Origin: an uncultured Pseudomonadota bacterium
Lineage (GTDB): Bacteria > Pseudomonadota > Alphaproteobacteria > Rs-D84
Direction: 5' to 3'
DNA length: 64,000 nt
Assembly: GCA_902762295.1 (NCBI GenBank)
Contig: CACWNX010000001.1
Location: 355,238 to 419,237 of the forward strand
Of the stretch, positions 53,809 to 56,487 are shown in pieces. A model generated the notes under the pieces. The model was given only the letters and a program-made list of their open reading frames with translations. It ran no database searches and was not told the origin of the DNA. The translations under genes and the position numbers were made by a program. Each line of letters begins with the position of its first letter. Within the stretch, counting starts at the first letter, position 1.

Positions 53809-56487
<2,679 letters not shown>

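Follow-up and report, generated by a model that had tools for sequence, protein, structure and literature searches.

Ribosomal RNA genes are a weak point of metagenome assemblies. Naturally fragmented rRNAs are also known; they result from intervening sequences that are cut by RNase III or, in some organelles and protists, from split genes, and the known natural breaks are found at helix tips. It is established that EF-Tu, EF-G and IF2 need the sarcin-ricin loop (SRL) of the 23S rRNA (PMC11912913, PMC2896532). Ribosomes are inactivated by cleavage of the SRL (PMC2896532); in E. coli, a 23S rRNA without the SRL acts as a dominant lethal, and delta-SRL constructs yield defective 50S particles (both PMC11912913). 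Our analysis concerns the assembly of a small genome from a gut bacterium, in which the only 23S rRNA gene is without this loop. We conclude that the gap is almost certainly not a real feature of the living organism.

The window, i.e. the whole stretch of 64,000 nt that was analysed (G000:C1:355238-419237), belongs to a genome of 836,327 bases in four contigs that is 93% complete. Its rRNA operon lies on the forward strand and comprises the 16S rRNA gene at 51813-53316 (RF00177, 1517.2 bits), the 23S rRNA gene at 53809-56489 (2681 nt; RF02541, 2420.5 bits) and the 5S rRNA gene at 56567-56681 (RF00001, 77.5 bits). The spacer between the 16S and 23S genes holds a single tRNA gene at 53436-53509. 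A search with the LSU rRNA model yields one match in the window and one in the genome, which indicates a single rRNA operon with one copy of the 23S gene; BLAST likewise finds one locus in G003, a relative assembled in two contigs. The 23S gene matches RF02541 over its full length (model positions 1-2925), with a score to be compared with a cut-off of 50 bits. The peptidyl-transferase ring can be aligned from model position 2487 to about 2643 with high posterior probability. From there to position 2747, the alignment collapses and the posterior probability is low.

At 56276-56300 the window reads GGTCCCTATCTAC|GTACCTGTTGTC, with the junction at 56288/56289 on the forward strand. Split BLAST matches, alignments and the mapping to E. 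coli all place the missing 68 nt at this point, and the claim of such a loss, which the original prediction had made from the letters of the window, is borne out by the sequence as well as by the split matches. Alignments to relatives reveal that the missing nucleotides include AGTACGAGAGGACC; the extra stretch of the relatives has the form TGTGGGCG...AGTACGAGAGGACC...CTGGT and represents the canonical SRL. In the aligned E. coli 23S rRNA the gap corresponds to the annotated positions 2613-2678. With the A of AGUACG set to position 2654, the gap presumably extends from about 2621 to 2686 in conventional E. coli numbering, close to the range of about 2620-2687 that had been predicted. We take it to remove the 3' strand of H73, the 5' strand of H94, the whole of H95 (the SRL itself) and the start of H96. 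Two sequences that were predicted to stay behind are indeed found, both on the forward strand: CCCGCAGC at 55712-55719, the 5' strand of H73, whose partner (TGTGGG in relatives) is gone, and TATGTTC at 56325-56331, the putative 3' strand of H94 according to the original prediction, whose partner is gone as well. That CCCGCAGC and TGTGGG pair in H73 is our assumption, based on their complementarity and on the general structure of the 23S rRNA.

The relatives give a uniform picture. The end of the 23S gene (window 55900-56489) was compared by BLAST with 41 genomes, namely its own, 24 of the same genus and 16 from other families of the order, and it matched 21 of them. Every match that spans the site splits at query position 389/390, which corresponds to window 56288/56289, and all 16 spanning relatives carry 68-69 nt at this place (14 of them were also aligned). 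The distance between the two pieces is 68 nt in nine genomes of the same genus (G002, G003, G007, G009, G012, G014, G019, G022 and G024) and 68-69 nt in the seven spanning genomes from other families (G025, G026, G027, G028, G031, G035 and G038). Four further genomes (G008, G018, G020 and G029) match with the right-hand piece only; their contigs end at the site. A collection of species genomes, searched with the intact left boundary as a positive control, contains 110 matching stretches, and each of the 80 listed among them contains the 68 nt, the SRL motif AGTACGAGAGGACC included. These 80 species genomes are Candidatus Enterousia-like gut Alphaproteobacteria. A strict pattern was passed by 76 of the loci, in which the spacing is exactly 68 nt; the other four, whose right boundary differs by one or two letters, were judged intact by eye. 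No relative shares the split, as the gene is continuous in 16 of 16 spanning and 80 of 80 listed genomes. An intron-related loss was also considered and rejected: none of the 80 fetched relatives possesses any insertion at the SRL site.

A second positive control combined the right boundary with the window allele C at 56306. It is found in nine metagenome contigs, all nine with the SRL. Intact H95 in relatives was the test that the original prediction had set in advance for its own claim, and H95 is intact in the 16 spanning genomes, the 80 listed loci and these nine contigs alike. Most informative among the latter is L035, which is 97.9% identical to window 56289-58966 over 2.7 kb, about 2 kb of protein-coding flank included. 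Judged by this identity, L035 is conspecific with the genome of the window. Between 56210 and 56547 it agrees with the window base by base (100%), except for the 68 nt that L035 holds, and it has window alleles, for example at 56393 and 56443, that are missing in five genomes of the same genus. Another contig, L038, was rejected as conspecific: its rRNA genes are 96.5-97.8% identical to those of the window and its coding flanks only about 70%, which identifies a different species. The junction itself, searched as a 24-nt pattern with two positions degenerate in order to catch relatives, has no match in 185,579 species genomes and none in 241 million metagenome records, scans that may omit the record of the window itself. 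The gap is specific to this assembly.

Sequencing runs add evidence from the level of samples. Fourteen runs each contain half or more of the words sampled from window 54500-64000; X1 contains 0.93 of them and may be the source sample. Four runs were compared with the window as pre-assembled contigs. In X2, a contig of depth 192.9 joins 56288 to 56289, with 79 letters on its shorter side, and skips no window letters; extra letters must hence be present in it at precisely this point, in a number that the comparison does not give. Its depth falls within the range of 162-222 that is seen for other X2 contigs without 23S differences, which assigns it to the same organism. Downstream of the site the X2 sequence differs from the window at 56556, 56557, 56561 and 56589 and has inserted A's at 56549 and 56559; these differences are those of L035. 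The X2 sequence and L035 hence represent one strain type and not two independent witnesses. Among the contigs listed in the four runs, none supports the gap. In X1, no listed contig passes over 56288/56289 in either form, and the bins 55975-56082 are empty. Near the site, contigs of the RNA run X15 are split and skip 51-52 letters, and one loose end lies at 56286; these contigs come most likely from other organisms. X1 also contains two variants of the 23S end and spacer at window 56395-56578, one of depth 7.4 that is identical to the window and one of depth about 5 with several differences. The sample is accordingly a strain mixture, which is a complication for assembly.

Outside the gap, the 23S gene is in good condition. 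Compared with five genomes of the same genus, window 54400-56489 shows about 25 substitutions and one indel, the 68-nt gap. At least three pairs of substitutions keep base pairs intact: 54531/54553 (C-G for G-C), 55221/55261 (G-C for C-G) and 55873/55890 (T-A for C-G). Such a pattern characterizes an rRNA lineage that works and not a decaying pseudogene, and the latter was rejected on the grounds that the rest of the gene differs by substitutions alone, of which several are compensated, and contains no further indel. With its 2681 nt against the 2925 positions of the model, the gene is also reduced in domain I, where a helix cluster (model positions 274-330) is absent and model positions of about 400-410 form a further part of the reduced region (window 54170-54210). 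Unlike the SRL gap, the reduction of domain I appears to be lineage-wide and real, because L038, from another species, aligns along the gene without large gaps.

What could have become of the loop, if its loss from the gene were real? The alternative raised by the original prediction is a fragmented 23S rRNA, whose SRL-bearing piece would come from another locus and enter the ribosome in trans. Room for such a piece exists in principle: the genome is 93% complete and in four contigs, and a short piece could sit in unassembled DNA. The assembled part, however, offers nothing of the kind. The SRL motif has no match in the window at up to two mismatches, as had been predicted, and the search of all four contigs, which had been proposed as the next step, finds none at up to one or up to two mismatches either. 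At three mismatches there are six hits in the genome, all without a GAGA loop, and H95 with its universally conserved AGUACGAGAGGACC loop has no match in window or genome. When the 68-nt segment of a relative is compared with the four contigs by short-word BLAST, the best match covers 13 nt (E 0.57). Motif searches, short-word BLAST and the LSU model search of the genome, with its single match, are thus all empty with respect to a trans-encoded piece, and this candidate was rejected; the fragmented alternative finds no support anywhere in the 836-kb assembly. Against it speaks further that the segment is in place in all relatives and in the conspecific with identical flanks, and that the gap, by the helix assignment given above, cuts through H73, H94 and H96 and delimits no structural unit, in contrast to known split sites. 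We regard a split gene as very unlikely. An organism that truly translates with SRL-less ribosomes is less credible still, to the point of being barely conceivable: nothing but the assembly itself speaks in its favor, and the evidence against the other alternatives to an error holds here too. Moreover, the conspecific has the loop next to an identical 23S end, so that there was no time for a co-adaptation of EF-Tu, EF-G or IF2. Put in general terms, it is highly improbable that the loss is real in the sampled population and compensated, be it that the SRL is supplied from unassembled DNA (a trans split in domain VI) or that a 23S rRNA without H95 is tolerated.

A private and very recent deletion that is real in the sequenced DNA and non-functional, i.e. 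a lethal or defective variant, deserves more attention, and still we consider it unlikely. It could take the form of DNA from dead cells, of a minority molecule chosen by the assembler, or of a collapsed second copy that is a pseudogene. The junction is clean and without the repeats that are usual in graph misassembly, the genome has no general indel problem, and the other small deletion close by might be the mark of a separate strain; these points favor a deletion in the DNA. On the other hand, there is one rRNA operon, and its 23S gene alone could not give working ribosomes. Since SRL-less 23S rRNA acts as a dominant lethal in E. coli, such a variant of a single operon should never become frequent enough to form the consensus. 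No decay is visible in the flanks, which match the conspecific at 100%, and the junction occurs in no other record and in no contig listed in the four runs. Known routes of deletion were examined as well: slippage between repeats or across a hairpin was rejected, since alignment of the junction reveals neither microhomology nor a direct repeat and the deleted stretch has no hairpin that would join its ends (DNA fold z-score +1.38; 187 of 200 shuffles fold at least as well).

Very probably, then, the gap is an error of assembly, scaffolding or consensus, a conclusion that we draw strongly from the sequence comparisons. The original prediction, too, had put an error of assembly or consensus, or a dead copy, first among the causes, a ranking with which the intact relatives, the intact conspecific and the private junction agree. 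Two results fit this reading. The closest sequence of the same species is normal with otherwise identical flanks (L035, to which the extra letters of the X2 contig can be added), and the junction is found in neither collection, in which the intact form gave 110 and nine matches. As the best reading of the data, the real 23S rRNA of the species would possess a normal SRL. Some observations count against an error: the junction is free of microhomology and direct repeats and the deleted stretch has no hairpin to join its ends, which leaves no simple mechanism for an error in sight; contigs of other assemblies break off 0-190 nt before the junction and not at it; and a generally indel-prone assembly was rejected, for ORFs of at least 80 aa cover 91.7% of the genome with a mean of 334 aa, coding density and ORF lengths are normal, and indel errors are hence not general.

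How an assembly error of this kind could arise is suggested by the position of the gap. Within the 23S gene, it falls into the stretch with the highest conservation, from the peptidyl-transferase ring to the SRL, which thousands of gut genomes share. A shared conserved stretch would cause assembly graphs to tangle and break, and reads of other taxa would swamp any read-based join, gap closure or polishing there; in the runs, the word depth in conserved bins is about 10^4, compared with about 14 for the organism in X1. The 68-nt gap would then come from a contig join, a gap closure, or a consensus or polishing step. Contig ends are frequent in the neighborhood. Among the relatives' loci (L041-L120), 31 of 80 have less than 190 nt upstream of the site, equivalent to window 56087-56277; we read these as contigs that start there, and as a strong break hot spot in gut metagenome assemblies of this group. 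Six of the relatives compared by BLAST have contig ends within about 200 nt of the site, and L033, L034, L035 and L040, which belong to the nine metagenome contigs with the window allele, start 64-79 nt before it.

Two further irregularities of the assembly would be in line with an error. Outside the window, 36 consecutive N interrupt contig C1, the largest one (G000:C1:672146-672181). They may be a scaffold gap, in which case the assembly was scaffolded, or else masked sequence. Behind the 5S gene, at 56691-56692 on the forward strand and 403 nt downstream of the junction, the comparison of contigs reveals a second shortfall, in which about 10 nt (TTGATATAAA) are missing. The sole X1 contig at 56691 carries these 10 nt (depth 13.7 of 13.7) and shows no other difference over 56626-57088, and they are present in the conspecific L035 and in the same-genus loci L003 and L007. 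The 10-nt shortfall may be another error of the assembly, or else normal variation among strains in a spacer that is not conserved.

A free-standing bacterium that really had lost its SRL would break one of the firmest rules in translation. As an error, it has consequences of another kind: a faulty 23S gene that is the only one in a public genome would mislead rRNA phylogeny, the design of probes and primers, and surveys of ribosome reduction in gut bacteria with small genomes. The locus also provides a concrete example that rRNA genes in metagenome-assembled genomes can hold clean internal deletions, besides breaks or chimeras.

In comparison with known systems, natural rRNA fragmentation would explain a gene that has no such segment, but here there is no separate piece and the relatives are unsplit; furthermore, the gap is not located at a helix tip, unlike the known natural breaks. 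The E. coli delta-SRL 23S is alike in being a 23S rRNA without H95 (PMC11912913). It is a laboratory deletion, however, whereas the gap described here also takes parts of H73, H94 and H96 and affects the only 23S gene of the genome. Misassembly of rRNA in metagenome-assembled genomes usually appears as a contig break or a chimeric rRNA, in contrast to the clean internal loss of 68 nt without end repeats that we observe. In its other traits the locus is like such a misassembly: the site is hyper-conserved, the defect is private to one assembly, and its junction has no match in either collection.
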